Shown piece after piece: positions 9,950 to 52,649 of a DNA stretch of 52,649 nucleotides. The position numbers were made by a program, and so were the translations under genes. The notes beneath the pieces were generated by a model. The model was not told where the DNA came from, searched no databases, and saw only the letters and a list, made by a program, of their open reading frames with translations. The stretch lies in NCBI GenBank assembly GCA_048634245.1, contig JAIWAR010000005.1, positions 1 to 52,649 of the forward strand. Reading direction: 5' to 3'. The stretch is from Methanosarcinales archaeon. Its GTDB lineage: Bacteria > Omnitrophota > Gorgyraeia > Duberdicusellales > 4484-171. Each line of letters opens with the position of its first letter. Within the stretch, counting starts at the first letter, position 1.

Positions 9950-9950
9950 G

Positions 9951-11088: not shown

Positions 11089-11090
11089 AA

Positions 11091-20175: not shown

Positions 20176-21282
20176 TTAAAAAGGTTTGCCTCTATTGTTT
20201 TTTACAACATTTTTTATTCCAATTATCAATCCAAGCGCATCATAAATATTATTAAACCCGGCATCTACATTCTCATTTTTCCACTCTTTCCGGTTATCAC
20301 TTATCAAAACAGTCATAACTCCTCTTCTCTTCGCCGGAGCCAAATCCCGTATAATATCATCGCCTATAGATACTATCTCTCCCGGAGAAACTTTACCAAA
20401 CATCGCCCGAGGAATGGAAGGCCAAACGCGGGTAATCACCCTTAAGATAGGATTAAAAAGCAAATCCATTATTCTATTGCGAAAGCGCGGCTGAGTAAAT
20501 CTATCTATGATTTTGCCGAACATAAGCGGCTTATCAGCATAGCCGATTACTTCGTCAATATAGTTAGCAATATCTAATTTTCCTAAAATATCACCCACAG
20601 TTTCCTCATCCGAATTCGAAACAACAACCAATTTCATTTTCTGTTTTTTCAAAGTACTCAGCATCGCGCACAATTTTTCGTCCGGATGTATACCGTAATC
20701 CCGGGAATGTTCGCAAATATGTTCTTTAAATCTCTCGTGTATATCAGATAAACCTCTACCGCCAAGCATATTGGCGATTATAATCAAAGGCCGCATATCA
20801 TGGCTTACATATACCATAGCCGAATACGCCTGTTTATCGATAATTATGGGATATTCTTTTGCTCTCAAATCTTCCGGGATTAGTTTTCTAACAAGCCTGC
20901 TTTGGCTGTGATCAACCCGTATACTCCAGGCTTTCACAACTCTATGGTTGCTATCTACTTCAAGAATATGTTTTTTTCCGCGAACGTAAACCTCACCTTC
21001 GTTAATAACACCTTCATCATCCCTAAACTTCCGGCATTCGTTATCAAATATAACTCGTTTTTTTTCTTCCGGTATGGCTTCCCGGAGCATACTAATATAT
21101 TTGTCTATATATTTCCTGTGTTTTAATCGATAAAGAGTATTATCAAGGTCAAAAATGATTAGTTTCAAATTTGCTATAGCCTTAACTAACTCAAAATCAC
21201 AGCTTTCAAATAAACCCGAAGGCAGAGGCTCTTTCTGCCCAACAGTTGTAAACAAAGTATACTCTCCTGTTTTGGATAACCT
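20176..21282 (-). other. Module: HAD-superfamily hydrolase
   Basis: Motif I IIFDLDNTLY, motif II VVVSNS, motif III KP, motif IV SIGDDIIRD. Confidence 0.85.
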
Positions 21283-24200
21283 GCCGCCGTCCTGAAATTG
21301 CTCTGATTGCATTTCCTCGCTTTTATGAGTAGGGCAAGATGGATAAAGATCAATCACTTCAAGGAGAATATCACTTCTTACTCCGCAGCCATAAAGAGTC
21401 TCATAACGATGAACTAAACAATCCTTCTCTCTCTGATACACTATAAAATGAAGCTCTTCCTCTTTTGTTAAATACTCAGGATTAGAAAGGTTAATTTTTT
21501 CGCTTTCAGATATCTTTCGGGAATAACCCACAATAAGAATCCCCCCATTCTTTAGATTTTTGCCCTCACAGATAAAGGCATCAATTATTTCTTCTTCATT
21601 AAAATTCTCTGGAAGAAGAAGATTGAATATCCTGATTATATCTGCCTCTAAGTTCTGAGCAAAAGGTTCAAATATATTATGCCGTATAAAAGAAATCTGC
21701 CGGCTTTCCATAGATTCCAGAACAGGAAGATATAGCGTTGAAACAGCAGTTCTTTTCTTCTGTCTGTTTAACTCAGACAAAATCTCTAAAACTCCTTCTG
21801 CGCCTATTGGAATTTCTTTTGCCGGATAAAGTCTGCCTTGTAATTTAATCTGCAATAACCCACCCTCAAAATTAAAACAAGCTATGTTTCTATTACTTTC
21901 AACGATAAAATACTCCGTGCTAATGTCACATCCTACAATTAAAATACTTTGGCTGCCAGTAACCTCTTTTCTTATTCTTTCATAAAGCTCAAAAGTAGTT
22001 ATTCCATTTGATATTGCTTCATCAACAATTATTAATTTATCCTTGGCAAGTCTATTCTTTAAATCAACAAGCCTTATGCTTCTAAATATATCCTCTTGAC
22101 AGTTGAGCAATTTCACAACAAAATCATCTATATCCTTTAATCTTTTAGGATATGTCTTCCTCAACACGGACATTCCTCGATAGGCATGTTTTATGATCGC
22201 CTGGCAAATATCTGCGATTACGCCTTTAAGCTCTGGATCTGAATTTTGGTAATACATCTCATATAATTCGGGAATTAACATCAAATCAAAACAATGCTCC
22301 TTTAATGCAGCAGCAGCTCTATGGCCACCTTTGGAACAATCTGTTGATAAAACATTTAGTAACTCTCTAATCCCTTTGTCTCCGTGCTTAACAAGAAGTT
22401 CAGCTGCTTTATCCGCAACCATATAAGTGTCATCACCCAATTTAGCCGCAATTAATTTAACGGCCTCACCTGTATGGATATCTCCCAGACTACAAAGCGC
22501 CTCATATCTGACTGTCATAACATTATCATCCAGTAATTTTCGCAAGAGAATAACTGCCTCCTCCTCTGGACTAATATTCCTTAACGCCCTTGCCGCTGTT
22601 TTTCTAATGCCTGAGTGAAGAGCGCCTGAGGCATGCTCAAAAATTGGCAAAACATCATAAGTACCAATTTGTCCTAATTCTTCAATAATCTGCATTTGAT
22701 CCCGCGGGGATTTGTTTTTAAATTCATCTATCCTTTCTCCGATATCTAAAACCTCTTCCCCCCTGTTGATTTCTTCTGCCATCTCTTTTAAAGCTCCACC
22801 GTCAAAGTTAGTTCCTCTATTAAAATTAACACCCCGGCGAAGAGATAAAGAAGAAACCTCTCCGTGACCAATGGCACCATCCTCCACTGGGATATTATCC
22901 AAACTTTTAAGTAAAACTAATATATGCGGGACATCCGACGTCTCACATAATTTGTTGCTACCGGATGGAAGAAGACAGGCTGCGGCTTTCTTAAGGTTAA
23001 ACCTTGGATACTTCTCAACACCTATTAGTACCCCGCCATCACAACTTTCTTTTAAATAAGTGATAACTTCTCCATCTTTATAAAACTGCTTAATTCCATT
23101 TTTCGAATTATCTAGTAACAGCCGGGCTCCGCATAATACATTGTTCCTGCGTATTTTCATGATTACCGCATACGTTTCCAGGTCAAGAACCTCTATGCCC
23201 GTATTCTTAATGATAACTAGAATCTTGCCATCTTGGGATAAGGTGGCTTCGCGGAGTTCTTCGTTTGGAATTAGGCTTTCCTTTGGAAACAGAACTTTTT
23301 CCTTTCCTTTTTCCACCACGGAAAGACGTTTAATCTGGGGGATGCGTCCTTCAACCCAGTGTCTTGGCAATGTATTCCAAGAGTAAAATGTCCATTTCCT
23401 GCCCTCTATATCTCCGAACTCGAATTTACGAAATTCGCTTGATAGAATACGGCTTTTGGACGGCGCACAGATAAACGGACGTTCAAATTCCCCATTCAGG
23501 AAATTTCTTTTGGGCTGATTTTCTGGTTTATCCTTGAATGGCTCGCTTCCGGCGTAACAATAATCTTCAGGAATATTGGCTCGCATGACTGGATAATTCG
23601 TCAATTCTAAAGACTGAAAGATATCTCTGAAAAAATCTTCCTTGGTTAGTTCCTCCTCCACCTGTTGTTGCTCAAACCACTGGGTCAGTAATCCGGAAAA
23701 CATGAAATCTCCGAAGATACTCACTGCCTCATCGTTCAATTCATTCTCCTTAAAAGTCCCCGGCTTAAGATTCTCGTTTTCCGGATCGTACATTTCTTTA
23801 CTGCCAAAGAGCAAATCATGGATATAGCTATAAAACACCATATTATGCTTACTGCTATAAACCCTTAAATCAGGCAGGCTCCAGGTAGCTTTCAAGTATT
23901 CAGCAAGGCAGTCAAAGTTCTTCTCTTCTTTACCCTCAAGCGGTATAAGGACTTGAACGCCATCTTGCTCTATAAGACGTCCTTTTCTCACAATAACTTC
24001 TTGCCCGCCATCCGAAAGCTTTATGACTTCCTGCCTAATCTTCCCGCCGTCTTTAATAGGCATTTCCTCTTTTAACTTCCGGTAGGATTTCGGAGTGACA
24101 TTTCTGTTCTTTTCTATTAACTCATCTCTTTCCTTGGAATATTTTAAAAAATAAAGAATACTTTTTTCTTTTCTAATATGATCTTCTCCGGTAAAAACAA

Positions 24201-27200
24201 AAAGTTCATTTAATTCAGAATGTTTAGTTAAAACCGCCATTATATTTTCTGCCATATAGGCGTTGCGAAGAGCCCAACATGCTTTTTTGGGATTTTCCGA
24301 GGTACTCATATATGTAACCGATTTCCTTTCTTTATCATCACTCATGTCAATGACATAATGTTTATATTTCCCCGGAGGAACAACATAATAATAAAAACCA
24401 TGTTCTAACGCCACCACTCTTTCTTTTTCCAAAAACGGCCTTAATTCAGGGAAGCAACAATTTATTAAATTAAAAGGGTACTGAAACATAGCTCCCGGAT
24501 GACTCACACCATAAAAGATAACTTTTTGTCCATTATCGAGGATAAAAGGTTCGAATCTTATATGGGTATTTTTATGCCCTGCTTTTTTTATTATGCCCAA
24601 ATATGCCAATACCTTAGGAAAAACCTCACTAAAAAACCACAAGACAGTAAATCCGGCAGCTACTATAAATAATCCGGTAGCAACATCACCGCCATCTTTA
24701 TCGGCACTATCTGCTCCAAGCTCAAAATTATCTTTTTCCCTAATATCTAATCGCGCCTCCAATCTTTCAAATTTCATCTGAATGATTTTAATCGCACTCC
24801 AGACAAAAGCTGCCAGAAAAGGATAAGCATACAGGAAAAATGGACTGTAATGTATGCCTATCATAGCCATCACACTAAGAAGAGGCATAGCTATAAACAA
24901 ATGAATTACTTTATTAGCCTTTATTCTTTTATTAGAGTTTTCAAAAGTTATTTCTTTTCCTTCTTCTCCGCTTCCAAATATATAACCTTGTTTCTTCTCC
25001 AAAGGCTTGTTTGCCAGGATACAAGTGTTCGCGCTAGCTGATCCCGGAGTTGAAAACCCTTCCCAAAGCTTTTTAAATCCGGTTTTATCGACAAGAGCCT
25101 GAAAAATAATATGGGTTTGGTATGAACGGGAAGTACAAAGAACCAAACCTCCCGGTTTTAATACCCTGTTTACTTCTTTCCAATCCGTTTCGCAGGAGGC
25201 AATTATCATAAAATCAATACTATTATCAGAAAAACACAAAGCCCCTGCCTGCGTTTGCAGATATTCGCTATTTTCTCTTCTTAAGAATTTCGCCGCCTTT
25301 TTATTAAACTTTATTATCCATCTGTCCCGGTCAATTCCGATATAAAAAACATTACTCCTGCCCAAAGCGCTTAAAATCGGGACAGATAAAATTCCGCACC
25401 CTAAGTCTAATACTCTGATTTTATCTTTAGTTTCATCTCCTTTTCGCGAATCCAAAATTTCACTCAATATATTGCTAACTATTTTTTTAATATGTAATAG
25501 GTGTAGGAATCTTACTTCAGCTATTGTCCCCAGAACAGGAAAAATAAAACGCCAACTAATTTTAGCTGAAAAATCATCTGTTTCTGAGGCTCTAAAGCCA
25601 GTATTAGGAATAATATTTTTACTCAAAGCTAACTCAAAATTTTTACCGGCTTTTGTCCTAATAAAAGCGGAAAGTGTCTCTCTGCCCTGTTTTGTTTCTT
25701 CCCATGTTTTTAAAGAAAGAAGGAAAACATTCAAAATGAATCGGGAATTGACCGAATCTTCATTCGCCTTTTCAAAAAGCTCAATAATTTCATAAATTTT
25801 TCGTTCTGCCACCTCTTTCTCTCCCAAAGCCTCTACGCGCATGTATCTATTAATAATCAATAACGCATCCGAAATTTTATTTCTTTCCGCTTTGGATAAC
25901 CTGCCGCCGTCTAAATTCCGTACTCCCATATCTTTTTTTAGCACTTTCCAGGCTAAAAGCGGCCGTCGGACTTCACCTTCTTTATTCAAAGTATCCTTTG
26001 CCACTGCGAAATAATATCCTGCTAGTGCCACGCCGGAATGTTTCATCCATGCCCTTTCGCCTGACTTCCAGCACCAAAACCAAGGAGTACTCGCGTAATA
26101 ATGATATTGTTCTTTTAAGGTTGTTTTTTCCTTAGCCCATTGCTTTAATGCTTTTTTGTCTATCACCATTTTCTCTTTGGCTATATTTGCACCATACATA
26201 AAATCATCATAAACCTTAGCCGGAATAAGCCCTGTTTTCTCAAAGGCATAAAGCACTCCTGCAGCATTTGTATATCCCATACGGTCTTTTATCCCCTTCC
26301 CAGATAAAATAAGATGCGCTATCCCCTGCATCTTCGCTCTTAAAAAAGCATGCCTTGTTAAGAAATGACTTATATATACTTTTTCTTTTCTCGGACTACA
26401 AATAAAAGGTTTTTGTCCCATTATACGGATTAAATATAAGCCGGCTATTTCTAAAGAAAAGCAAAGAGCGGCTACCACAAGAAAAATGTTTTCCTTAAAC
26501 TCAAACCACCCATTTATTACAGCCCCTGGATGAGAAGATATCATTAGTAATAGACCAGTATAAATCACAAGAAAAGATACTGCTGTTATTGTCAAAAATT
26601 CAATCTTCCGTTCTCTTAAATAAATATCCATCTTCAATGTTTTGATATTCGCGTAAATTTGATTTATTCTTTCTTTCTTCATACCTGGTAATAATCTTAA
26701 GATATCGGTCCTATCCTCAACCATAGTTTTTTGGGCCGGAGAAAAGTTTTCTTCTTCTGCGGGTTTAAGTTCAAGCTTATTAGGATATTCCTGATCTACC
26801 GCGCGAATAATCTTGGTTGTATCAAAAGATATCTCTTTTTCACCAGCAATAGAAAAAATGCCGGCAATGGTTCTCTCCTTCAAAGGATCACTAATGTTAT
26901 ACTCTTTCATAACATTTCTTATTTCATCTGTATTAATTTCTTTTCCGGAAGAAGCAGCTACACATGCCAATTCCCGCATCATTTTCACTTTTGCTTTATC
27001 TTCCTGAGTTATGCTTACTTTTATATCTTTTTCTGAAAGCAAACCCTTTAAAGAACCCTTATTATAAATTCTTTGAGTTACCTCCCGAACATCTTCTGTA
27101 ACAATCTCGATTTCAATATCCTTATAGCCAGTTAACAGGATATTGGCTCTTAAAAATAAATAGATTTTCGCGTATATCTCTCCTGCCTGAACGCTTATTT

Positions 27201-44900: not shown

Positions 44901-47900
44901 ATCTTCTTTTAACTCTAACTCAGATAAATTTCTTATCCTAATCAGCACTTGCTCTGAATTTTGAATTCTTTCTACTGCCGGATTAACAAAGTAATCCCCA
45001 TTTTTATATTGAATAACTCCCGCGCTGCTAAGTATGCCTAACGACTTCTTTATAGTCCTTATCGGCATATAAAAAATTTGCGACGAGATATTTTTTTGTG
45101 TAAATTGATTCAAATTTTTATTAAAAATAACATCAAGAACTTTTAATGTTGAATGAGTCCACTCATTTTTTCTTTTTTTAGCTTGAAGCTTCTTATACTC
45201 ACTCTCCCGCGTTAGTAAATTAACCCATTTATCTTTTGTAACTTCATTAATGAATTTCTCGTTAAATAGCACTTCAATAAACTTTTTGCTAAATAAATAT
45301 CTATTAGATACCGGTCTATATAAAATACCCGCGTTTGTTAAATTACTTAGCAGAATGTTGATTTGCTTCTTATCGATATACTTATGTTCTTTTTTCTTAA
45401 ACAGCTCAATTATTTTTTCAACATCAAAAGGTTCTTCTAGCCCAGTTATTATATCCATAAGAGTTGCTGCAAATTCTCTATCCCGGCCGGTAAGGAAATT
45501 GCCTTTACTTTTTGCTCCAATATTATCTTCATAAGTAAATTGATTAAATAGTTCTTCTTGCTTTAAAATTGTCCTATATTTATTATAGTAGCCATCTTCT
45601 ATAAAGCCCTTTTCCTTTAACGCGTCCACAAAATCACTGCTTAACAAATAACGCCCCCGTACAGGAATATATAACACTTTAGCTTTCTCCAAAATAACCA
45701 ATAGATGCTGAAAATGGTCTTTACTATATTTGTCCTTTAAAAAGCTATACCTATTTCTCAATTCTTCCGGCCTAAAAATAACCTCTTTTTTAACCGGCTC
45801 TAAAATGGTAAATAATAAATCTCTGTCCTGATTTGTCAATGATTTACCTGCTATACGGCTGCTTCTATATTCTATGCCTTCAGGATAAATAAATCTGTTA
45901 AATATCTCATTCATGCCCGCGACAAGAAGGCATAAATCAGAAAAAGTTTTCCCTCCATTTTCAACAAAACCGCCGTCGGTTTCAATTTGTTTCAAACAAT
46001 CATTGATTGAATTGCGATTTTCTGTGCTTTTCGTATCCTGAGCAGCCTGCTTTAAAGCGTCTATACCAATACTGTCTCCCCCATCTTTACTGTCAAATTC
46101 CCTACCATTTCCATGTTTAAATAAATCTTTCACTGACCGGGAAGGATCATAGGTAAATCTCTGATATAAATCTTGCTCGATTTCTACTTTACGGATCCTA
46201 ACCCAATCCGCGAAATACTCGGATATCTCCTCAGGAATTGTCCCCAATTCGCTGATTACCGCTTTTTCTATTTCTCTCGGCGTAAAAATAGGTATTGTAA
46301 AAATTTTATTTACTTTTCCATCCAGGGAACAAAGCCAGTCTCTATAATCAAATAACATAGCTATCAATTCTTTCAGACTGCCTTTTTTCAACTCACGTAA
46401 AGCATTAATCTTTATAAGTTCTGGTTCAAGGCCTTTCAATTCTTCTTCTGAAATATCTCTCCTTGTCTCAGTAATACGCTGGCATACTTCCTCATTTAAT
46501 CTAATATCACCTTCAAATATACGAAAATCACCGACAATATATCCTGTATTTTTCCATAATCGAACCATTCGGCTTATAGTTAAAACCAAAATAAAATCAA
46601 ATAGTCGCGTGCCTTCTCCTATCCCCAACTTGTCACCTTCCCAATCACGTAATATTTTCCATCCTTCATATTCACTTAGATAAATCTGCCTATAATTTTC
46701 TATATCTTCCCTAATATACATAGGATAAACTCTTTTTTCTCCGTCAACATATATTTCAACTTCCACATATTCAAAAACCTTAGGCCATGCATCAGCATCT
46801 ACACCATATGCAATCTGCAAATTTTTAAATTCATCCTGTGCCGTGACGCGCAATCCCTCTGAATAATAGTGATTATCAAGAATTAAAGTCATTTTTTTCG
46901 TTTCTTCCTTATTTATAATTACAATTTCCAATTCGGAAACAGAACCTGCTCTCTCGGGTTCCGCAAATATCCCTGTGGAAAGAGGTTTAATCAAAATAAA
47001 CACTTCGTGTAAACTTGAATGAAGATGTTTTAATAATTCACACAGAACTATCCTATTGCAAACCACTTGCTCGTAAACCTGCCTTTGCACATTATTATAA
47101 TGATTAAGTTCGTCAATCCTAATAGGCGCGCATCTGTTTAAATGGATAAACGACCGCACGTGCCTATCATCGAAATTAATAACTAAATTAACTCTTTTCC
47201 CATTAATAGTCGATTGCCTTCTCATAATATTAGAAGGTGAATAGGGAAGAATGAATTCTCCATATTTAACGCTGAACAACCTGCATATTTTTTGAAGGTT
47301 TGAAAGATACATCTGCTTTAGTTCTGTTACATCCCGGTGCAAATAATCAGCGATAAGGGGCCAATCTTCAGTCAAAATTACACCAAGCGTTACCGGCCGC
47401 TTATCTGTATTTATCTCCCTGCGTAATAAGCCCCATACATTTTGCACCATTAGCAGCATCCGATAGATAAACAATACCTCTTCAATTTCATCTTGGCTAA
47501 AAGACTGGCGGCCGTTGTTATCATTTCTTTGGGGTAATTGCTCCAATATCTGAAAAGCATCGTTGTGCCGAATATCATACTTCACCTTAGATGCCCAGAC
47601 AAAAGACCGCAGAATTCTTAAAGTATGTTTTGGAGTAAAAGCGTAAGGTAACTGGGGATTTTTACTCTCACGCTGTAATTCTGATAGAGGATACAAATTC
47701 AAGAAAACCTGCCCTAAATATTCATCCGTTGGGGAGTCTTGTTCATACACATATTGATGAAAAACTCTACTAATATATTTTGAAATCGGCTTTTCTCCAT
47801 AGATGTATTTATGATCTATCATGAATATAGAAACAAGTTCTTTATCCTCACACCGTACCGGGCAGCGGAATCTCATGGTTTGGTTAATCACATCATCCAC

Positions 47901-50900
47901 ACAAAATCCTGCACGCTGCAGAATATTACGGACAATAATATATAACTCTCTACAATACTTTTCATCTTCCGGTGAACGCGGAACAATCAAAAATTCTATA
48001 TCTGAACTCAATGTAAACAGATTCCGCGCTAAGCTCCCCAATACTTCTACACTGAATTTATTCCCAATTTCATTAGCCTCGTTATCCCTTGACTCATATT
48101 CTTTAGAAAACTTTACAGTTTCTATCAAAATACCGACCACACTATCACTAAAATACCGGCATACCTCCTCTTCATTTATGCCTGCCGCAGGCATTGATTG
48201 ATACTTTTCAAACAATCTCTCTCTGTGTTGTCTAATAGTGTTAATAAAATCACCTATATTGTTTTCCCTAACTACTTCCCCGCCATCGAGATCAAGTTTA
48301 TTCCAAAAAGAATCATCGCTTAAAACAGAAGATACTTCTAGCCCCTCAAAAACATCAGCATCTTTATCTTCTAAATAATTCCTCAAATCATCCCAGTCAA
48401 TTTTTCCTTCAATAAACTTACTTTTCTTTATAATAATTGCCAAATTTTCCAGCTCGTTATGTACTTTTTTCACCGTATTCAAATCAACCCCTTTACCTCT
48501 GTTGCCCATTTCGTTAATTATTTTTTTAAGAATAAAAGGATTAAGTCTTAATAATTCCCGGATAATTTTTACTCTTTCTTCCTCCGACGACTTATCTATC
48601 TTTAAAAATCCTATAATCTTCTCAGATTCCATTATATTTAATTTCAAAAAAGAATTCTCACTTCGATATAATTCGTTTAAAATCATCTCTATGTTTTCTT
48701 CAGAAACATTAAGGATTTTCGCGTAATATTTGGTGATTTCTTCCCAACCGTTAAGTGCCATCGAACTTTCTAATTTAGAAAAGTTGCCGTCATGAAATTC
48801 AATCCAGGGCGAAATTATTGCAAGATCATTTAAGTCATTTACTTCCCATTTTTTTAGCCATTTACGTATTTGTCCTAAATCTTCCTCAACCTTTTCTATC
48901 TTGCTTATTTTTTCCGCGTTTCTAAGAATCTCTAATTCTTGTCTCTTCCTAGATGAAAATAATTTCCGCACCCTTACTGCTATGCATAAAATAGTAAATA
49001 TAGTAGCAATAGCCGCATATTCTTCTCCTCCTCCAGATATCCATTCACTAAAAGAAATAATAGCCGTGATGATTAAAATATGACTTAGTATTATTAGAAA
49101 AACTTCGACACTTTTAATCTTATTTATTAAATGGGTTATAATTTCAATTTTGTCATCTTCTTTGAGATTCTCCCCTCCATCTTTTTGTCCAAACCTTGCC
49201 CGCTGCCATAGATATTCCCACCCGGCATCAGTATTATTTTTATTTTCAGAGATTTTTTTGGCTATACCTGCTATTAGAATGCCGTAGGCATATTCAGAAA
49301 AGCTATCGTGGAAATTCGCGACTCTATTCATCAAATCTCCATATTTAAAAAACAGGTTTCTCGTCTTGCAAAATTCTCTTGCCTTTTTTTCTTGAATAAC
49401 CGAATCACGCTCAATAGCCAACTCTTTTCCTTCAAACCTATATCCTTCGCTGTCATTGTATTCATTTCTAGACTTCAGTTCTTGCCCCCATTGTTGTGTT
49501 GAAATCTCTTCCCAAAACATGATGCTCTCCATGCCTCCATCCCGCCTCAAATAATACTTACGCCGAGAATCTGTAATAATAGAAGCATTTTTGAAGGTCA
49601 ATTCAAAATCAACTTCATAAGTATCCGGGGTTAAACCTTTTATCTTTTTTATAAAATATCCCGTTTCCGGTTCATTTAATCGCTTACGCCATTTATTAAT
49701 TGATAATGAAAGGATGTGGGAACTATTTACATTTTTGGCTCCCTCTTTGGCAAAACCAAACAGCGCTTCTCTAAACAAAGCTCGCCCAATTCCTTTCTGC
49801 CAATACTTTTCGTCTACATCCCAATTGTAAATTGTTCCGCTCTCCCAACTTTTTAATATCCTTACCGATATATAACCAATTACTTTTCCATCTTTTAATG
49901 CTACCCACCCCTCATCACGGAATTGTTGTCTACGCTCCTTCTTATACACGCTTAAAGATTCTACTTCTTCTTGCTCGCATTTATCTACTTCTTTGATTCT
50001 TACCTCAGGAATCATTATATGCGGGCGCCAATTTTCTATAATCTCAACAACCTCACACTGCTCTGAAAGCATAAAGCCTAATTTCTTAATATAGAATACC
50101 AAGGTTTTAGCCCAATTCTCTTCATCGATAACATCATTAATTACCTGGGTATAGGGGATTTTGAACGTTTTAATTTGAGGAAAGATTTCTCCTAAAGCTT
50201 TAAGCCGCGCTTTATATAAAAACTCATAATTACTCTTCTCTTCCAACCCTCTAAACAGCAACCACGCCTCGTTTTCATGGAGTTCTGCGCCACCATAAGC
50301 AATTAATATTTTATCTCTAAATATTGCTTCATAGTAACGTTTAACACGGCGTTGCTGCCTTTTTCTGACCCATGCTTTTTCAGTAAAACAAACCCATTTA
50401 AAATCATTCCCCAGTTCTTGAGAATAAACGTTTATAAAAAAAGCCTTTCCCCAATTAAAAATTATTTTCTGTCGAGCCATCTCTATACGAAAAAGGAAAC
50501 ACAACTTTATATTTTCCAAAAGATCACATAAAACAACTGAAGGGTCATCAAGCATCTCCAATAGGCAATCTTTTTCTTTGGCGAATATGATGGCTTTCCC
50601 ATCTTCAGCTTTTTCAAAGAATTTGACTATATCTTCTTTGGAAACATTCTTACCCGAACTACAAATAGCAGGAGCCTTAAGCCGTGGATAAACTTTATGA
50701 TTTGTTAGTTCTCCTCCATCCTTAATTTCTTTACTATCCCAATGCTTCCATCCGGCCATAATCTCATCAAAAACCCGCCAATTAACCATTACGCCTTGGT
50801 TGATTGATCTTAATATGCCTGTACTTTGTTTATACCTATTTATAATGTCTTTGTTGAAGCCGCCTATTTGAGCCTTTTCCATATTGCTCATTTTCCATAA

Positions 50901-52649
50901 CAAAGCAACAAGCTCTATCTGAAAATTTAATGAAATTTTTCGATAAGAACTGTCCTCTTCGATGCCCTTATAACTACTCCTAAATTCAAATATCGTCTTA
51001 GATAACACATTTATTTCGGTTAACAATGTTTCCATTGATTCCGGAACTTTTCCTCTGCCAAAATTAGGCAATTTAAACAATCGGCCTCCGTCATGATTGT
51101 TTGGGGAATCCGGTTTAATTCCCCTGCTATGTTCGTGCTTACAGGTTAACGGGATATGCAAAGCCTCCCCCCGACCAAAACACATCATTAATCCCGCGTT
51201 CTGCTTATACCTATATATAAGGCCAGTTGCAAGATTGCCTTCCTGTATTTGCTCTATCCGGCTTAAGTTGAATAGCAACCGAACAAGCTCTATCTGCAGG
51301 TCTGAAGAAAAAATACCAAATACAGCCATATTTTCCAATTCTCTTTGACCACCGTCTGAATTCAATCTAATTCCTGCAGGTTTAATCTGTATCACGTTAA
51401 GAGCATGCCAGTATTCAAAGCCACCATAAGGAACATCTTCTTTAACTATCAGCCCCCTGCCTTTCATCCAATTGACCCATCGACTATCTACTCTCTCAAT
51501 TTTTAAAGGAACCTGAAACCCTTGAGAAAGCATTTCTATCTCGATGCGCTCACCGTAACTATCCAGATACTTTTTAACATCCTTCCCGGCTAAAGAACTA
51601 TAGTTTATAATAATACCCGCATCAGGATTATCCGGATTAAGATGGTCTATCCCCTCCTTAATTATTTCCCGGATAAGACCGGTTCCCTTATAAGGATCAT
51701 CAACGGCAGTATGTTTATTCTCTTCCCATGGCGGAGTAGGAATATAAGGAGGATTAACTATTATTAAGTCTGCCTGAGGAGGCAGCGTGCTAATACCTTT
51801 ACCTGAATGAGGCTCCAAGATAACTCCATTCGCTTTAAGATAAGGTAAAATATTTCTTTTTGCCGCCATAAGAGCGTAAACACTAATGTCAGTAATCATC
51901 ATTGTTTCCAAACTCTGCATGTGCTGGACACACGCCGTAGCAATATGCCCTCCGCCTGTACCCACTTCAACCGCTGTTTTAATGTCGGTTCTGTCAAATA
52001 TACCGTTTTCTTTAATTACCTTGTGCAAGTAAACCGTATCGATATTTGTTGCCCAGACATCTTTATCAATACGATTATCGTGGTTAGTGACAGTATTCAT
52101 AAATTCCGTATACCTTGCTCCGCGCATGTAGAGCATTAAAATCCTGGTAAGTAGTTCTCCGGAAAAATGTTTAGCAATATAATTATCCGGAAACATAAGG
52201 CGGCAGCTTGGAATATCAATAATATATTCAAGCCGTAGCTTCGAATAATCCACACTTCTATCTTTACCGTGTACGCCTGAATTATCTAAAACTTTATATA
52301 GAGTAAGTGTCTCCAAATCATCGCTCATCTTAATATATAATTCTATACGTCTAGTAGTACTTAAATCAGCTACAGGAAGATTCGGCAAAAACACCAAAAT
52401 ATTTGCCTCCTTAATACATTCCGCGAGGGTACCTAATTTATTAAAAGTACTTATAGCACGAGGATAATCGTTTTCAAAAATACTTTGAATTTCATGCGCA
52501 GTTTGTGCTGCTTCTTTATCCACACCGCCATCTTTATTATCCAAATCACCCATAAAATGCGCGCCGATTGATTCTTTATTATGAGCTAAGGCATCATCAG
52601 CAATAAGTTTGGCAGCAGTCAAAATATTTTCTATCTCAGCCTTCTCAAC
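35961..52649 (-). CDS. Giant DGG-delimited multidomain protein, upstream segment (5' end outside the window)
   Basis: Frame is open to the window edge (VEKAEIENILTAAK...), so TTG 52622 is probably not the start. Contains 17 DGG motifs. Confidence 0.9.
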   Translation of the reverse strand, partial: VEKAEIENILTAAKLIADDALAHNKESIGAHFMGDLDNKDGGVDKEAAQTAHEIQSIFENDYPRAISTFNKLGTLAECIKEANILVFLPNLPVADLSTTRRIELYIKMSDDLETLTLYKVLDNSGVHGKDRSVDYSKLRLEYIIDIPSCRLMFPDNYIAKHFSGELLTRILMLYMRGARYTEFMNTVTNHDNRIDKDVWATNIDTVYLHKVIKENGIFDRTDIKTAVEVGTGGGHIATACVQHMQSLETMMITDISVYALMAAKRNILPYLKANGVILEPHSGKGISTLPPQADLIIVNPPYIPTPPWEENKHTAVDDPYKGTGLIREIIKEGIDHLNPDNPDAGIIINYSSLAGKDVKKYLDSYGERIEIEMLSQGFQVPLKIERVDSRWVNWMKGRGLIVKEDVPYGGFEYWHALNVIQIKPAGIRLNSDGGQRELENMAVFGIFSSDLQIELVRLLFNLSRIEQIQEGNLATGLIYRYKQNAGLMMCFGRGEALHIPLTCKHEHSRGIKPDSPNNHDGGRLFKLPNFGRGKVPESMETLLTEINVLSKTIFEFRSSYKGIEEDSSYRKISLNFQIELVALLWKMSNMEKAQIGGFNKDIINRYKQSTGILRSINQGVMVNWRVFDEIMAGWKHWDSKEIKDGGELTNHKVYPRLKAPAICSSGKNVSKEDIVKFFEKAEDGKAIIFAKEKDCLLEMLDDPSVVLCDLLENIKLCFLFRIEMARQKIIFNWGKAFFINVYSQELGNDFKWVCFTEKAWVRKRQQRRVKRYYEAIFRDKILIAYGGAELHENEAWLLFRGLEEKSNYEFLYKARLKALGEIFPQIKTFKIPYTQVINDVIDEENWAKTLVFYIKKLGFMLSEQCEVVEIIENWRPHIMIPEVRIKEVDKCEQEEVESLSVYKKERRQQFRDEGWVALKDGKVIGYISVRILKSWESGTIYNWDVDEKYWQKGIGRALFREALFGFAKEGAKNVNSSHILSLSINKWRKRLNEPETGYFIKKIKGLTPDTYEVDFELTFKNASIITDSRRKYYLRRDGGMESIMFWEEISTQQWGQELKSRNEYNDSEGYRFEGKELAIERDSVIQEKKAREFCKTRNLFFKYGDLMNRVANFHDSFSEYAYGILIAGIAKKISENKNNTDAGWEYLWQRARFGQKDGGENLKEDDKIEIITHLINKIKSVEVFLIILSHILIITAIISFSEWISGGGEEYAAIATIFTILCIAVRVRKLFSSRKRQELEILRNAEKISKIEKVEEDLGQIRKWLKKWEVNDLNDLAIISPWIEFHDGNFSKLESSMALNGWEEITKYYAKILNVSEENIEMILNELYRSENSFLKLNIMESEKIIGFLKIDKSSEEERVKIIRELLRLNPFILKKIINEMGNRGKGVDLNTVKKVHNELENLAIIIKKSKFIEGKIDWDDLRNYLEDKDADVFEGLEVSSVLSDDSFWNKLDLDGGEVVRENNIGDFINTIRQHRERLFEKYQSMPAAGINEEEVCRYFSDSVVGILIETVKFSKEYESRDNEANEIGNKFSVEVLGSLARNLFTLSSDIEFLIVPRSPEDEKYCRELYIIVRNILQRAGFCVDDVINQTMRFRCPVRCEDKELVSIFMIDHKYIYGEKPISKYISRVFHQYVYEQDSPTDEYLGQVFLNLYPLSELQRESKNPQLPYAFTPKHTLRILRSFVWASKVKYDIRHNDAFQILEQLPQRNDNNGRQSFSQDEIEEVLFIYRMLLMVQNVWGLLRREINTDKRPVTLGVILTEDWPLIADYLHRDVTELKQMYLSNLQKICRLFSVKYGEFILPYSPSNIMRRQSTINGKRVNLVINFDDRHVRSFIHLNRCAPIRIDELNHYNNVQRQVYEQVVCNRIVLCELLKHLHSSLHEVFILIKPLSTGIFAEPERAGSVSELEIVIINKEETKKMTLILDNHYYSEGLRVTAQDEFKNLQIAYGVDADAWPKVFEYVEVEIYVDGEKRVYPMYIREDIENYRQIYLSEYEGWKILRDWEGDKLGIGEGTRLFDFILVLTISRMVRLWKNTGYIVGDFRIFEGDIRLNEEVCQRITETRRDISEEELKGLEPELIKINALRELKKGSLKELIAMLFDYRDWLCSLDGKVNKIFTIPIFTPREIEKAVISELGTIPEEISEYFADWVRIRKVEIEQDLYQRFTYDPSRSVKDLFKHGNGREFDSKDGGDSIGIDALKQAAQDTKSTENRNSINDCLKQIETDGGFVENGGKTFSDLCLLVAGMNEIFNRFIYPEGIEYRSSRIAGKSLTNQDRDLLFTILEPVKKEVIFRPEELRNRYSFLKDKYSKDHFQHLLVILEKAKVLYIPVRGRYLLSSDFVDALKEKGFIEDGYYNKYRTILKQEELFNQFTYEDNIGAKSKGNFLTGRDREFAATLMDIITGLEEPFDVEKIIELFKKKEHKYIDKKQINILLSNLTNAGILYRPVSNRYLFSKKFIEVLFNEKFINEVTKDKWVNLLTRESEYKKLQAKKRKNEWTHSTLKVLDVIFNKNLNQFTQKNISSQIFYMPIRTIKKSLGILSSAGVIQYKNGDYFVNPAVERIQNSEQVLIRIRNLSELELKEDRNLSELELKEDRLENLINKEGSIGLNEKLCERLIVTAGIKEEGDYRINKAIEIIKRGSDGRKNQKMFAHVVYASNDIESLLERHKETVELALNRIEIAGINIFPGKLRVVKKIEELAGLEKITKVEDRNKIKDTIYVLSSINKTIIESCGVSKSLAVSMLSLLANPTDRQLIILRKVYDTIKLGEKVNFNNINRELNLSGTGVVAPIVLQYLGVLNWGYTGDEGNIKRFLDLYPEIENLSNLKITKRDVKEKEKIERKDIKIQAIWAFINSMEQGGKRIEDMEKMSGEEIEEFINNLAGLDFKVNNGYFSVGTRRGRKQSLKRIDRKDLIGKVKEFYNRVKIFEDILKEKVREKLHREKEDILELINNLDMEAEENAYQIRYILAERVKRGDSDYLLDIIQDIRGDSDWNRLDPDGGISNLVILGFIPTEVTVLALYTSWFAKSGKNKGSPIEGYDCYCSFYSFMLLFVLPIITFFDLILNNSAANSISKKSSYGFLLPQRDNGSIITRQDRIEDLILSKVTSETLWKIMADKLKISYSDSDTWKGKNTEVVFTFKPPVSGSRLSFSVSEKQNGFNSQGYDGGADIKVEQSVIKIQKILKHGYQPAEGEQKTFIDSLVHKISKLKFEEEEMAIKTGTEEKRMSLADILNELKLTIEEIFTRLTILRASRRGNLRLIDDDINEMIEEAKYIIKFMGELKYEWYSLEANITPQKYLEVFTEILLAFNISLCMEEMYSKKYFGVNEENEAYADKVKEILISNKDEPLEEKWTILSRAEQGCLAYLVQKNIMKVEIRDFLHGKPLKTVRESIEKRAILNELRLIKKKNSSNSDGGIEDIGKKIVPQNVAFIQNYDGVAKYQSPGILFFAEILKEGGHSTDFYNSATALLKKLRYYKKSCKERPYNIIGISTTTLDLAVNLRLAREIKIIDPGVVVILGGKGIFEPFNLIKAGGVDIVMQGDVDNTLLWVVNLIARNDIEKIPDSLLRIPYDTLLDKFCKNNLSRRELNNKKEMINIEFGECHFISPLTSFHAAELSGERLSRELSDYRYNIFPQNIFMKVGSIIGGKAENRIVAIGPNPDAVVRQVKNVLENTEIIAEIKTKGDEKDIIVNGHLEDKAGIIESFYGVKDSQGVYEENPDEIKKRFIERLYKGISPVERYLMDKRERRKSGFPPVSMDKFHRITSILPYGKEYNKRYYPPEAAQPYDELSIYAQDGCSYAECAFCFAPKLRGSISSKRVVENIMYVLKNSHIRRIGLNDDDFLQNPSWLFEFIDLMEEEQKNNPELFEQLTFSIQTRVRELNKRSEEAIIRLKSLGLYRVELGVESMSEKQLYEMRKVQEGEAKKYIENAYAMVSFLVENAIHAQINCILAEPSSQLKDISENIRGFMSFANKIYASLGYLLVGSVNNKVLASPDELLKNRDSPDSWRKKDNFIQLAPEITSDELGFIEINNPINYFYPNEGVEEFLIKFREHLFVLNKLMEPVFLKIICLRKTDWEQAELLIRGIILPLFYLIELKYSAEILKKLVEKQGNKDICEDVEMISNNFITICESFKLHGLDIVNLIFNILERNIKLKEKRMSGDAEFYDWGYFVDDIDEIGGQIKFMETVFKGMVDEQTMASLTEGFSRLEMLGEDWKQKVLIESAEIVFHGEKGELEDKQDGGTDFYKKFTNPGAFLSAPYTQVILREFLKKIKETRRKVGFIADLGSGLGQNLGVISECFPESKLLALDISKKALEASRIVPDKESINLRREELKKIYGISDDLLDNYFNLSRLHSFNPQDIGFMTGSIQNLPLKKSADIVVCTEVLEHVFSPQRAVGQIEEVLAPKGFIILSTPNYFNAAGLIKKIKDRGEDAPWWEPWETHIKDGERGRENFMTAFYLEELVKSKGLRIIETRGANPLRAFMFPMYTPIIEYKPEFLPLLWMNKLPLVNKVFKRTSMNYFILAQKECDGGRKEVEIDDIAKYFLPYVKCGKKHLFKIINDAFTAELRIPRLSKHQIYFSFDEAEEEILKKAIPLVVSSKTDEEEIEIVVQSFGCGIGEELYGAARMITEYAENNRKFKELVLTGRVHIQLTGYDISLKRLTRAYRNTEIQTRLLLPMYFHDCIDYAYFYMDIRDEDTREILLERKADINICRLTWAFNDENSAVSFAKELGNNLKSPGVLLFEEKSSESPYSMYYKIAEIVDEGKDIELAGKREQPESVGVTSNRDGGSTKEQFLPTCIGEIKKDELWRGKRIFEGYKFILNEAGKALLREIDYWLARENGCFISDTDSKGINNLIQQIPTIENPHPEFFVDIMEGIPQRIRELIISPLYSYHDDLVLQITIGCSNNCLTCQVDSEKGKIVSIPFPLVNKFLVEVSKALNVDTGRRVMFYFNSEPFDYHDKVLDADLGDVCKMAYDFNLPPVVITHGWFPNNKVAQRAAEKIERLKGGIEKNVELSIHVFHGDVFKNPQRAVSRYANRFANVIKTLKPSGIRLYSKGYGEDFPLIKEVFDSMMKILESDRDVCRWIREPEDCSLKRVWVGDDSIEWYGRAYDLRKKFGLSLPSSSRNIVAQECMIFRADGAILLATNYGLDRPFKEIFSGNDDPAFIKFMHFLAFVVREYEKKFGYKSFKKWWLHNDCALWSFSYKFNNLQKDKWFLCRFKDISSFFKEDVKVETLTIGIRWISFYYEMLLIFAPQLINKLRSLGNDEVISKDELEIIYSDLSEMPVRDGRRTVTIAGPEEFLKNPDDSHILDFSIEPNPRTPNRFYRTSWQLFSGKDEDESVVEEGAKQDERKEINIISGEDGGRTARTEVKIVVGNGLELFFIKMSFVMKEVLVLLEKYKDEGEIIDYYLAGDFARGTFDYQNDDVIIAVNLAPNTSSIVGTILEEAISRLSQKLGVRFRIDFDSVGFVHSVEVIEGNVCIKAVDWKDAGAYLQGTFSFYPLIDISLVSKDNFSPKFFKELCDAMKKIHRGNRFFDNGAMGFDKNAANRQENDGGKISGV
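35988..36554 (-). other. Module: minimal nucleotidyltransferase-like (degenerate)
   Basis: YLAGDFARGTFDYQNDDVIIAV compared with consensus hFGSxARG...SDhDh. Confidence 0.55.
36564..38285 (-). other. Module: radical SAM enzyme
   Basis: LQITIGCSNNCLTC (CxxxCxxC), SEPF, VITHG and LSIH. Confidence 0.8.
38295..39059 (-). other. Module: CheR-like methyltransferase
   Basis: VQSFGCGIGEELY (CheR has WSAGCSTGEEPY), TGYDIS and DINICR. Confidence 0.7.
39069..39929 (-). other. Module: class I SAM methyltransferase
   Basis: ADLGSGLG, ALDIS, DIVVCTEVLEHV and LAPKGFIILSTPN. Confidence 0.88.
39939..42407 (-). other. Module: cobalamin-binding radical SAM enzyme
   Basis: PGILFFAEIL, IIGIS, VILGG, GCSYAECAFC, DDDF and LGVES. 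Confidence 0.85.
43659..45968 (-). other. Module: repeated winged-helix-like domains
   Basis: About 118-aa repeats: FNRFIY..LTNQDR..LEKAKVLYIPVRGRYLLS and FNQFTY..LTGRDR..LTNAGILYRPVSNRYLFS. Confidence 0.6.
44865..44933. repeat. 33-bp in-frame tandem duplication (RNLSELELKED x2)
   Basis: Units 44865-44897 and 44898-44930 differ at one base. Confidence 0.95.
46086..48278 (-). other. Module: GlnD/GlnE-like nucleotidyltransferase plus unknown C-terminal domain
   Basis: VLGSLARNLFTLSSDIEFLIV and a downstream helical segment LRILRSFVW. Confidence 0.6.
49542..50711 (-). other. Module: unknown domain plus GNAT acetyltransferase
   Basis: VALKDGKVIGY and WDVDEKYWQKGIGRAL. Confidence 0.8.
51357..52523 (-). 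other. Module: HemK-like NPPY methyltransferase
   Basis: VEVGTGGG, ITDIS and DLIIVNPPY. Confidence 0.85.

Follow-up and report, generated by a model that had tools for sequence, protein, structure and literature searches.

MARTX toxins are giant arrays of unrelated enzymatic modules in which a cis-encoded cysteine protease, an inositol-phosphate-activated C80 domain, cuts the linkers after Leu. Polyproteins with Gly-Gly-X sites include pp220/pp62 of the African swine fever virus, the LXGG substrates of the coronavirus PLpro, and polyubiquitin; they are cut by papain-like or clan CE proteases. The polyvalent proteins of phages and conjugative elements, reportedly described by Iyer et al. in 2017, are said to be long, to combine unrelated enzymatic domains and to have been proposed to undergo processing. 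The canonical substrates of C39 peptidases carry a single N-terminal leader, whose helix places hydrophobic residues at -4, -7 and -12 in the groove of the enzyme, according to the available part of PMC6363468.

Whether the giant proteins of Omnitrophota act whole or cut is a puzzle. In the part of their text available to us, West-Roberts et al. 2023 (10.1101/2023.11.21.568195) placed the threshold for giant genes at >90 kb, proposed that C39 and S8 peptidases cut the Omnitrophota giants, stated that the cleavage points were unknown, and reported that their absence blocked structural analysis. The size records given in the available parts of this study and of another are 85,804 aa (10.1101/2023.11.21.568195) and 147,155 aa (10.64898/2026.06.07.730766). 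The same parts of both texts mention neither DGG nor a delimiter motif, nor the words 'linker' and 'polyprotein'. Literature searches returned no description of a DGG delimiter, in agreement with the first-pass annotation of the locus studied here, which held this delimiter to be undescribed for bacterial giants. Giant multi-enzyme proteins are already known; the DGG delimiter is new.

We analysed a window of 52,649 nt, which is the entire contig C5 of the Omnitrophota MAG of an uncultured cold-seep bacterium (G000, 1.39 Mb, completeness 93.75%). Its nearest database relatives (the MAG proteins P0002, P0162 and P0004-P0009) are named Omnitrophota or Candidatus Omnitrophica by their source. Two giant ORFs, A and B, together cover 32.4 kb in this fragmented assembly (Table 1), and contig C3 consists of 67.4 kb in a single frame open at both ends. 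We found no contig-end overlaps that link or order the giant fragments. B has an open frame from 35985 on. At the junction, a single contig of run X3, which comes from a different study, has one more base in the A-run (on the plus strand, an additional T behind 35974); by our own frame reading it places A in frame with B in a single ORF of ~10.8 kaa. The extra base is absent from the source run X1 and from run X2. We take the window to contain the final ~10.8 kaa encoded by a giant gene of the Omnitrophota 'multi-enzyme' type that is fragmented in the assembly; a one-base homopolymer difference may have split this part into A and B. Downstream of B, on the same strand, lies an Opp-type ABC transporter operon. 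The 20 ORFs downstream are housekeeping genes (Opp, a class II D/K/N-type tRNA synthetase, McsA/B, ClpC, RadA, IspDF, CysRS). The housekeeping genes that anchor the contig have 88-91% identity in 8/8 congeners, where the synteny of the locus is retained. This setting is unlike that of polyvalent proteins, which belong to mobile elements and carry DNA-conflict domains.

Table 1. Features of the giant ORFs in the window (coordinates on the forward strand; A and B numbers are residues of the respective ORF).
Feature	Coordinates	Strand	Basis or remark
Giant ORF A	35961..52649	-	5562 aa; 17 DGG; 5' end off contig; stops 5 codons past last DGG
Giant ORF B	20176..35910	-	5244 aa; 17 DGG; ATG 50 nt past stop of A
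A/B junction	35961..35990	-	last DGG of A (GAC GGG GGG), then A4 run and stop
DGG A40	52524..52532	-	motif count
DGG A432	51348..51356	-	motif count
DGG A520	51084..51092	-	motif count
DGG A644	50712..50720	-	motif count
DGG A1037	49533..49541	-	motif count
DGG A1157	49173..49181	-	motif count
DGG A1455	48279..48287	-	motif count
DGG A2189	46077..46085	-	motif count
DGG A2225	45969..45977	-	tandem with A2189
DGG A2998	43650..43658	-	TM-like hydrophobic stretch directly after
DGG A3164	43152..43160	-	motif count
DGG A3412	42408..42416	-	26 aa ahead of B12-binding/radical SAM unit
DGG A4238	39930..39938	-	22 aa ahead of methyltransferase unit
DGG A4528	39060..39068	-	start of similarity to relative P0162
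DGG A4786	38286..38294	-	conserved in P0162; similarity decays past site
DGG A5363	36555..36563	-	motif count
DGG A5555	35979..35987	-	at A/B junction
DGG B706	33787..33795	-	motif count
DGG B721	33742..33750	-	tandem with B706
DGG B1047	32764..32772	-	opens 175-aa GNAT module
DGG B1222	32239..32247	-	closes GNAT module
DGG B1247	32164..32172	-	tandem with B1222
DGG B1714	30763..30771	-	motif count
DGG B1878	30271..30279	-	motif count
DGG B2169	29398..29406	-	motif count
DGG B2468	28501..28509	-	motif count
DGG B2595	28120..28128	-	motif count
DGG B3334	25903..25911	-	motif count
DGG B3739	24688..24696	-	TM-like stretch directly after
DGG B3954	24043..24051	-	motif count
DGG B3967	24004..24012	-	tandem with B3954
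DGG B4291	23032..23040	-	motif count
DGG B4370	22795..22803	-	25 aa ahead of HEAT unit
DGG B4874	21283..21291	-	39 aa ahead of HAD unit
Methyltransferase small domain (MTS), N6AMT1/HemK-like, A223-302	51744..51983	-	Pfam and PDB sequence search
GNAT acetyltransferase, A889-972	49734..49985	-	Pfam
Nucleotidyltransferase domain, A1528-1603	47841..48068	-	Pfam, weak, E 1e-4
B12-binding (A3441-3545, below Pfam cut-off) and Radical_SAM (A3791-3928) unit	40866..42329	-	Pfam
SAM methyltransferase (Methyltransf_23), A4263-4471	39237..39863	-	Pfam; inside 290-aa DGG-to-DGG module
CheR-like methyltransferase, A4586-4665	38655..38894	-	Pfam, weak
GNAT acetyltransferase, B1100-1181	32368..32613	-	Pfam; in 175-aa DGG-to-DGG module
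SAM methyltransferase (Methyltransf_31/UbiE), B3495-3603	25102..25428	-	Pfam and PDB sequence search
HEAT repeats, B4398-4475	22486..22719	-	Pfam and PDB sequence search
HAD hydrolase, last module, B4916-5141	20488..21165	-	Pfam; 40% identity to first P0162 module

Both giant ORFs contain 17 DGG, at exactly the positions listed by the first-pass annotation, for a composition expectation of 1.19 in each. Residue shuffles (n=2000) of A and B gave a mean of 2.40 and a maximum of 9, against 34 observed, which agrees with the two to three that had been put forward as the chance level; a first-order Markov model expects 5.7. DGG was the most enriched tripeptide (34 vs 2.38, Poisson P 2.2e-27), followed by two tripeptides that overlap with it, KDG and GGR. 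D precedes 34 of the 69 GG, and G follows 34 of the 55 DG. The near variants showed no enrichment in A and B: EGG 2 vs 3.7, NGG 2 vs 2.3, DGA 2 vs 1.9, and DGS 1 vs 2.3. The sites of the window are all internal, with spacings of 13-826 aa. Genome-wide, the enrichment was restricted to giant ORFs: 123 DGG occur in the eight ORF fragments of the DGG-type giants (49,499 aa), whereas the ordinary ORFs (n=1152) have 50 vs 80.8 expected. Could DGG be a matter of chance, an artefact of composition or part of a hidden repeat family? We give this reading virtually no probability. It is already refuted by the enrichment (P about 2e-27, shuffle maximum 9 vs 34), by a logo of 129 sites in which the information is confined to the tripeptide and two residues on either side, leaving flanks nearly information-free, and by the comparison of the giant ORFs (60,743 aa) with themselves, which returned only 11 similarity blocks.

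The residues next to the motif are selective. Before the D, at position -4 of a presumed cut after Gly-Gly, acidic residues (3 vs 17.7) and I/V/M (6 vs 19.6) are rare, and K/R (30 vs 16.8) and polar residues are favoured. After the GG we counted P 0 vs 3.8, G 1 vs 8.4-8.5, and K/R 33 vs 16.8. The extended motif is [K/N/T/R]-D-G-G-[R/K/T/S/E], and preferences of this kind on both sides are what a binding cleft typically imposes. Over the 15 residues of the flanks, polarity exceeds that of random positions (mean hydropathy -0.71 vs -0.34; none of 5000 random draws as low) and K directly precedes 12 of the 34 sites of the window, so that the polar linkers and frequent preceding K of the initial description were recovered. 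Tandem sites, 5-50 aa apart, account for 21 of the 115 spacings in the DGG-type giants of the genome. Of all Asp contexts, Asp-Gly forms succinimide most readily, and one may imagine that succinimide and isoaspartate formation leads to slow non-enzymatic breakage or isomerisation at the borders in a slow-growing cold-seep organism. Such chemistry would produce sites like these, which need no long flanking signal. Yet it explains neither the second Gly (DG other than DGG occurs 21 times vs about 36 expected), nor the preferences on either side, nor the replacement of DGG by SS(S)P in congeners (see below), and we regard it as very improbable.

The codons of the motif allow one to separate selection on the peptide from a signal in the DNA. 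The pattern GAYGGNGG occurs 123 times in frame 0 of the DGG-type giants, three times in the other frames and never on the opposite strand, and all synonymous codons of Asp and Gly occur at each position of the sites. The use of both Asp and all four Gly codons had been noted from the window and taken as selection on the peptide; this conclusion holds, but a strong codon bias had been missed. Over the 123 sites GAC makes up 62% vs 23% in the background (P 1.6e-20), and GGC makes up 46% of the first Gly vs 24% (P 3e-8). This bias is what one would expect if DGG were the translated scar of a DNA cassette junction, with a core like GACGGCGG, that persists because the junctions are young while the peptide goes unread. 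The differences in module order among relatives and the lack of detectable similarity between B and the giants at the syntenic locus of congeners also fit a scar. Neutral decay of a scar would however leave non-synonymous near-variants, of which none is enriched, and a scar is at odds with the presence of every codon and with the restriction to one frame and strand. In congeners, the SSS runs are encoded by all six Ser codons, drawn from the two boxes, with a preference for those ending in C, which fits accuracy selection on important residues, a reading we draw from the general features of decoding by G34 tRNAs. We consider the scar improbable. Together with the lack of enriched near variants, the codon patterns show selection on DGG at the level of the peptide.

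DGG sites avoid recognisable domains. In the window, 0 of the 34 sites fall within a Pfam match of A or B. Among the giants of the genome, none of 108 DGG lies inside the 28 Pfam units, which cover 14.6% of the sequence (15.8 expected, P 4e-8); overlaying domain borders on the sites had been suggested as a check. Whole enzymes fit between consecutive DGG with 14-51 aa to spare (PGM I-IV, GH94, iPGM, PGK, HAD). Of the 65 end-points of local-similarity blocks, 23 are no more than 12 aa away from a DGG (5.3 expected), a number that none of 5000 random placements reached. The Pfam families that follow one another along one polypeptide in these giants are distinct (methyltransferase, GNAT, HAD, radical SAM, PGM, glycoside hydrolases). 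PDB sequence searches with A and B matched only N6AMT1-like and LahSB-like methyltransferases and alphaRep/HEAT proteins. An AF2 model of B1041-2240, built without an alignment for domain borders, had a mean pLDDT of 33.5 and was unusable. Enrichment, frame specificity, Pfam units, block ends and the reordering of modules described below all bear out the role that had been claimed for DGG between domains: it is a real and selected delimiter, and its positions show where the borders of the predicted modules lie.

Some modules are glycolytic enzymes. In G000, PGK was matched solely in a giant-embedded copy, and iPGM was found only in giant fragments. We rejected the idea that giants are the sole carriers of glycolytic enzymes: a canonical PGK, in a frame of 375-439 aa, is present in 40/40 family relatives (fragmented in one incomplete genome), and GAPDH has a stand-alone copy. 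Since the MAG is 93.75% complete, its own canonical PGK is probably unassembled.

Word-based searching recovered no giant relative of B other than B itself, the first 3000 aa of B had no match in 30 relatives, and the search of A3400-4800 found one partial protein. The partial protein P0162 comes from another Omnitrophota MAG and reads as the HAD module of B, DGG, a spacer, DGG, the A4528-4786 module, and DGG. It is 65-74% identical to A over the latter module and the similarity is gone directly past the DGG. Hence, the same modules occur in P0162 and in the window in a different order, and the alignments show modules that travel between relatives as DGG-bounded cassettes. Other DGG-rich giants are P0008 (19 vs 1.8), its near-identical cluster mate P0154 (19) and P0009 (8 vs 1.9). 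A survey of related giants, one of the follow-ups originally suggested, uncovered another delimiter: in the two congeners with a readable giant ORF at the syntenic locus, both ORFs carry SS(S)P[VI] marks in place of DGG, which is not enriched there. With SS(S)P[V/I/A] in other lineages of the family, both the mark and its reader seem specific to the lineage.

A candidate reader is encoded in the genome. The C39 peptidase domain (PF03412) has two matches, of 43 and 39 bits for a cut-off of 22, in the giant ORF C12 and in C14. In C12 the domain is near the visible N-terminal end of the giant fragment; C14, scanned with PF03412 only, is a stand-alone paralogue of 893 aa with one N-terminal hydrophobic anchor. 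The catalytic residues are intact and conserved among the aligned homologues (Cys 149/149, His 145/145). The AF2 model of the domain (pLDDT 89) gave best Foldseek matches with 6mpz (the double-glycine protease LahT150) and the peptidase domains of PCAT1 and ComA (E down to 9e-7). The domain has the GG-specific C39 peptidase fold, with invariant Cys and His, and is the leading candidate for a DGG protease. We found no C48 or C39_2 domain in the genome. A related N-terminal C39 region is present in all the other DGG-rich giants found (P0008, P0154, P0009), and there was no C39 match in any of the eight congeners. The association of domain and mark is loose elsewhere: the C39-bearing giants of six other genomes show no excess of DGG or GG, nor do 51 of the 54 other long (at least 1400 aa) C39-region homologues among the matches listed, many of which are N-terminal pieces. 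The first 4474 aa of C12 contain no DGG, and one genome (G011) encodes one C39-bearing giant and one SSP-type giant.

Four further ideas were examined and dropped. DGG is depleted in the ordinary proteome (observed/expected 0.62 here), and it is so in the congener G001 (0.44, 400 kb sampled); the depletion is thus general and not an avoidance signature of the source genome. A second link between protease and mark was sought with S8, found only in G000 (contig C39), and with Trypsin_2, which lies inside the G007 giant and is absent from the G001 fragment; this distribution forms no consistent pattern. L/F/Y/W are rare at P1' (7 vs 23), as if N-degrons were avoided after the cut, but several other linker positions have similarly low values (9-11). 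Met at P1' (3 vs 2.2) did not reveal internal translation starts past DGG.

Proteolytic processing at DGG is the explanation that these observations best support, and we infer the following scheme from the sequences. The chain consists of at least 30 autonomous modules (methyltransferases, GNATs, B12/radical-SAM, a nucleotidyltransferase, HEAT, HAD, and many of unknown family). Each of them is bounded by the strict DGG motif in a polar linker, at times doubled within 5-50 aa. DGG would be recognised by a sequence-specific endopeptidase, with cleavage after Gly-Gly, and the giant product would be separated into its enzymes as a polyprotein. The leading candidate for this protease is the C39 domain of C12 and of its membrane-anchored paralogue. 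We judge this account, taken as a whole, about equally likely to be right or wrong. A wider one, in which polyproteins are punctuated by lineage, with DGG here (~50-kaa products), SS(S)P[V/I] in congeners, co-evolution of protease and mark, and in-frame exchange of cassettes, is possible, and we lean against it. The first-pass annotation had put forward a polyprotein cut at DGG or a secretion or threading signal. The former is plausible given the intact C39 in the genome, but the sites are non-canonical and there are C39 giants without DGG.

A signal that is read without being cut is another way to account for the delimiter. DGG could be a hinge or docking mark recognised by a chaperone, by one of the SecA-like or translocation parts that have been described for these giants, or by an assembly factor, with the chain kept as a membrane-tethered multi-enzyme scaffold. 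The position in polar linkers at module borders is as expected from such a mark, and so is the absence of a DGG avoidance specific to the proteome of the source genome. There are three TM-like segments in A and five in B, two of them directly after DGG (A2998 and B3739); modules may thus sit on both sides of the membrane, beyond the reach of one protease. The SS(S)P of congeners resembles ordinary Ser/Pro-rich linkers, and C39-like domains can bind their substrate non-catalytically in type I secretion, according to the available parts of PMC6363468 and 10.1101/2023.11.21.568195. Yet a passive linker has no need for an exact tripeptide whose variants DGS, DGA, NGG and EGG show no enrichment, or for subsite preferences that extend one residue to either side of it. 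Unlike degenerate C39-like domains, the C39 found here has kept its Cys and His, and tandem sites are better suited to redundant cutting. We see the uncleaved mark as a possibility of well below even probability, and retain cleavage after Gly-Gly as the preferred reading.

Set beside the systems described above, the locus is closest to the Archaeovorin or 'multi-enzyme metabolic cluster' giants. It comes from the same phylum, judging by the source names of its relatives, and shares with them the TM segments along the chain and the very long ORFs in which methyltransferases, GNAT, HAD, radical SAM, PGM and glycoside hydrolases follow one another. Their N-terminal C39 domain next to a membrane anchor has a counterpart elsewhere in the genome, in C12 and C14; the 5' end of A lies off the contig. 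It differs from their descriptions by a strict tripeptide at every detectable module border and by congeners that are marked otherwise. The double-glycine leaders cut by the C39 domains of PCAT/AMS proteins (LahT150, ComA, PCAT1) also have a GG right before the presumed cut, as do the sites of the window (GG at -2/-1 in 34/34), and the peptidase fold with conserved Cys and His is common to their C39 and ours. In contrast to these leaders, the DGG sites are internal, many per chain, with an invariant Asp at -3 and polar residues at -4, -7 and -12; the hydrophobic residues at these positions and the Glu at -8 of canonical leaders are missing from the logo of 129 sites. The architecture also departs from that of PCAT, since residues 1-4675 of C12 have no Pfam match to ABC exporter domains. 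MARTX toxins resemble the present giants in their module array and in the cis-encoded cysteine protease that would release the modules, if the C39 candidate is correct. Here, however, the modules are metabolic or modifying enzymes and no known toxins, and there was no Pfam match to C80 or RTX repeats in A, B, C3, C12, C59 and C67 (E<=0.001-0.01). Repeated GG-containing sites between functional units are also a feature of the Gly-Gly-X polyproteins, but these are viral or eukaryotic and rely on other protease families; no C48-type domain was found in this genome.

DGG looks like a cutting signal, and its positions give bacterial giant proteins their first candidate cut-map. This map provides concrete sites that can be checked by metaproteomics, through semi-tryptic peptides ending in DGG, and the C39 domain with a DGG linker forms a defined candidate protease-substrate pair for a bench assay. 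The delimiter also allows giants to be split objectively into modules for structure prediction and annotation. The exchange of cassettes, and a mark that differs between species of one genus, bear on the fast evolution of giant genes. If processing occurs, the marks would directly supply the cut-map of proteins that are tens of thousands of residues long, and operon-like sets of enzymes would be made as one chain and then separated, which is undescribed for cellular prokaryotes at such a scale.

The stretch 20176-52649 is taken up by two giant ORFs, A and B. Among window ORFs of 150 aa or more, only two short frames (156 and 187 aa), both within B, are on the plus strand; the rest are on the minus strand. 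The window is the entire contig C5 of the Omnitrophota MAG G000 (1,385,018 bp, 99 contigs, 93.75% complete). Downstream of the giants it encodes ordinary chromosomal genes: an Opp-type ABC transporter, a class II D/K/N-type tRNA synthetase, an FtsX/ABC pair, a class IV aminotransferase, McsA/McsB, ClpC, Mla, RadA, PIN, IspD, IspF and CysRS. The order McsA-McsB-ClpC ... RadA-PIN-IspD-IspF-CysRS (692-11582) appears to resemble the ctsR-clpC-radA-ispDF-cysS gene neighbourhood conserved in Firmicutes. The OppB-like protein is kept at 88-91% identity in 8/8 same-genus genomes, which physically anchors the giant ORFs to this organism. Their nearest database relatives are proteins of MAGs named Candidatus Omnitrophica or Omnitrophota, and the window DNA is present in cold-seep metagenome runs.

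Giant ORFs of the window and Peptidase_C39 matches in the same MAG
Feature	Location	Strand	Description
Giant ORF A	35961-52649	minus	5562 aa, 5' end off sequence
Giant ORF B	20176-35910	minus	5244 aa
C39 match 1	giant fragment C12, close to its visible N-terminus		PF03412
C39 match 2	C14:22423-25245 (L001)		stand-alone 893-aa protein, N-terminal hydrophobic anchor, intact domain

The first-pass annotation had counted 17 Asp-Gly-Gly (DGG) motifs in each giant ORF and put the expectation for both together at 2-3. Counts and coordinates are exact, and composition gives 2.4. Over 2000 shuffles the mean was 2.40 and the maximum 9, against 34 observed; a first-order Markov model predicts 5.7. No other tripeptide is as enriched as DGG (P = 2.2e-27), whose lead exceeds 20 orders of magnitude, and the next two, KDG and GGR, both overlap it. 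Asp precedes 34 of the 69 Gly-Gly pairs in A and B, where EGG, NGG, DGA and DGS were at or under expectation. The excess is confined to giant ORFs: the 11 ORFs of at least 1500 aa in G000 (60,743 aa) have 131 DGG vs 16.9 expected, whereas the remaining 1152 (364,626 aa) have 50 vs 80.8. We classed eight fragments as DGG-type (two in C5 and those of contigs C3, C12, C59, C67, C69 and C71; 49,499 aa, 123 sites), leaving out C13, C48 and C27. Contig C3 is wholly filled by a single frame of 22,457 aa. The median distance between DGGs is 297 aa, and 21 of 115 intervals are under 50 aa, i.e., tandem sites. The linkers are indeed polar, with a flank hydropathy of -0.71 vs -0.34 (0/5000 random draws as low).

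Eight windows of A and B are TM-like, two pairs of which overlap, leaving about six separate segments; from these predictions the giant chain may pass through the membrane repeatedly. In the regions 43500-43660 and 24630-24700, the sites A2998 and B3739 (ORF and residue) directly precede such hydrophobic stretches.

In the DGG-type ORFs, GAYGGNGG is found in frame at 123 sites and out of frame at three, and the opposite strand has none. Selection on the peptide had been claimed from codon use, and this holds: every synonymous codon occurs and the motif is in frame, although the codons are strongly biased (GAC 62% vs 23%; first Gly encoded by GGC 46% vs 24%). A minor rival reading is that DGG is a DNA-level junction scar, against which the near-restriction to one frame speaks. 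C-ending codons are likewise preferred at the Ser runs of a congener's giant gene, where all six Ser codons occur. We infer that DGG is selected as a peptide, with a preference for accurate codons at important residues. Site information is confined to the residues neighbouring the tripeptide. Before the Asp, K/R are frequent (30 vs 16.8), and acidic residues (3 vs 17.7), I/V/M (6 vs 19.6) and G (1 vs 8.4-8.5) are rare; after the Gly pair, K/R are again frequent (33 vs 16.8), P is absent (0) and G rare (1 vs 8.4-8.5).

Pfam units in A are a small methyltransferase domain, a GNAT, a nucleotidyltransferase, a B12-binding and radical SAM unit and two methyltransferases; those in B are a GNAT, a methyltransferase, HEAT repeats and a HAD hydrolase. 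Other fragments contain whole enzymes: phosphoglucomutase I-IV, GH94 phosphorylase, glucoamylases, a GAPDH-like domain, iPGM, PGK, hexokinase, UDPGP, GT2, CofD and AAA_5. As the first-pass annotation had noted for the domains it recognised, DGG avoids the interior of domains: against 15.8 expected, none of 108 DGG fell in the 28 Pfam units (P = 4e-8), which span 14.6% of the sequence. Complete enzymes fit between successive DGGs with only 14-51 residues left over, and in the window a 175-aa GNAT and a 290-aa methyltransferase are DGG-bounded modules. Internal repeats are nearly absent from the giants, whose 60,743 aa yield 11 similarity blocks. Across the giant fragments of the genome together with three related proteins from databases, similarity blocks have 65 ends, of which 23 come within 12 aa of a DGG (5.3 expected); none of 5000 random placements reached 23. 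The end-points are mutually dependent. P0162, a partial protein of 1236 aa with six DGG from another Omnitrophota MAG, has in order the HAD module of the end of B, DGG, a spacer, DGG, the module 4528-4786 of A (65-74% identity) and DGG. The similarity ends past that last DGG, and farther along the protein matches residues 1-46 of A, including the DGG A40. Modules thus move as DGG-bounded cassettes. We have very little doubt that DGG is a real, selected delimiter of modules.

The giants of C3, C12, C67 and C69 (L080-L089) embed divergent whole enzymes of central metabolism (PGM, GAPDH-like, PGK, iPGM, hexokinase, GH94, GH15), and iPGM was found in G000 in giant ORFs only. PGK-like modules also occur within giant ORFs of the related genomes G053 and G011; canonical PGK genes are present in 40/40 relatives searched.

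A stops five codons past its last DGG, within a G6-A4 run, and the frame of B is open from 35985 (35961-35990). In run X3, which belongs to a study other than the likely source, one contig carries an additional A-run base, behind 35974, and this places A in frame with B. This base is absent from runs X1 and X2, and X2 has a 2-nt deletion at 35712, inside B. Given the fusion and the open frame, A and B are best seen as a single gene whose junction is itself a DGG border, on weak contig-level evidence (depth about 5.5). Natural populations seem to hold frame-changing length variants of giant genes, or these are contig errors.

The text of West-Roberts et al. 2023 (bioRxiv 10.1101/2023.11.21.568195) describes giants with N-terminal C39 and S8 domains and proposes cleavage, declaring its points unknown. 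In G000, the two matches of PF03412 (Peptidase_C39) are 77% identical over the domain. The C14 protein is a paralogue of the N-terminal end of the C12 fragment, and its stop lies 70 nt short of the contig end. A full HMMER search with it retrieved 234 proteins at E ≤ 1e-3, of which many are giant; the catalytic Cys is kept in 149/149 and the His in 145/145. An AF2 model of the domain (34 sequences, pLDDT 89) best matched LahT150 and the peptidase domains of PCAT1 and ComA. No C48 or C39_2 domain was found in the genome. We listed 55 other long proteins (at least 1400 aa), among them P0162, which alone came from a cluster look-up and not the HMMER search. DGG is the top tripeptide in P0008 only (19 vs 1.8, P = 7e-14); P0154, nearly identical to it and of the same cluster, likewise has 19, P0009 has 8 vs 1.9, and P0006 has three, all after residue 3367. 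By their C39 region, these four are some of the nearest long relatives among the matches listed. The 17 DGG of C12 all lie past residue 4475, so N-terminal fragments tell little of a following array. C39 matches were found in 0/8 congeners.

Several results count against C39 as the reader of DGG. Six C39-bearing giant ORFs of other genera have no excess of DGG or GG. In G011 a C39-bearing giant coexists with one of the SSP type, and P0141 combines a C39 region with SSP. The helix with hydrophobic -4/-7/-12 positions that LahT150 is described as recognising (PMC6363468) is absent from the DGG sites. The deficit of DGG in the ordinary proteome (0.62) is matched by congener G001 (0.44) and thus gives no signal of avoidance. 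Proteolytic processing is the best explanation of the DGG sites, one to which we give about as much belief as doubt; that the C39 domain is the protease acting there is a lead, and a rather doubtful one.

Two other peptidase matches were observed. An S8 subtilisin-like domain lies in a 583-aa frame running off the end of contig C39 (G000:C39:12569-14317; L058, L059), with matches in 0/8 congeners. Residues 3915-3951 of C12 (L081), in its DGG-free N-terminal 4474 aa, weakly match a matrixin-like zinc metallopeptidase (E = 8e-4, under the cut-off).

Among 5.8 billion clustered proteins, a search for giant relatives of B (2884-9177 aa) matched only B itself, and residues 1-3000 of B found nothing in 30 related genomes. 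In the congeners G001 and G007, too, the conserved Opp operon has giant ORFs upstream of it (at least 10,642 and 14,105 aa), with no excess of DGG (0 vs 2.1; 4 vs 2.7). These giants are punctuated by another delimiter, runs of Ser followed by Pro and then Val/Ile: SSSP 27 vs 0.18 in G007 (P = 7e-49; C1; L055, L056, L096) and SSS 50 vs 5.5 in G001 (C2; L052, L053). In G011, of another genus, a 12,225-aa ORF (C61; L094, L095) has an SSP[V/A] mark (SSP 39 vs 2.7, P = 2e-31), which is weaker in G053. The median spacing is 208 and 251 aa in the two congeners, and 150-250 aa over the giants of G007, G001 and G011.

A 2026 preprint (bioRxiv 10.64898/2026.06.07.730766) describes in its text a class termed 'multi-enzyme metabolic cluster' and an architecture cluster with C39. 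Supplements aside, neither giant-gene preprint's text mentions DGG, polyprotein or linker, and that of 2026 is also without 'motif' and 'cleav'. Our literature search found no paper joining Omnitrophota with polyprotein and nothing relevant on the delimiter. The kind of protein is already known; the strict, lineage-specific punctuation is new. Given the short strict marks of the G001, G007 and G011 giants, such punctuation is general in this family, and DGG is one among at least two marks.
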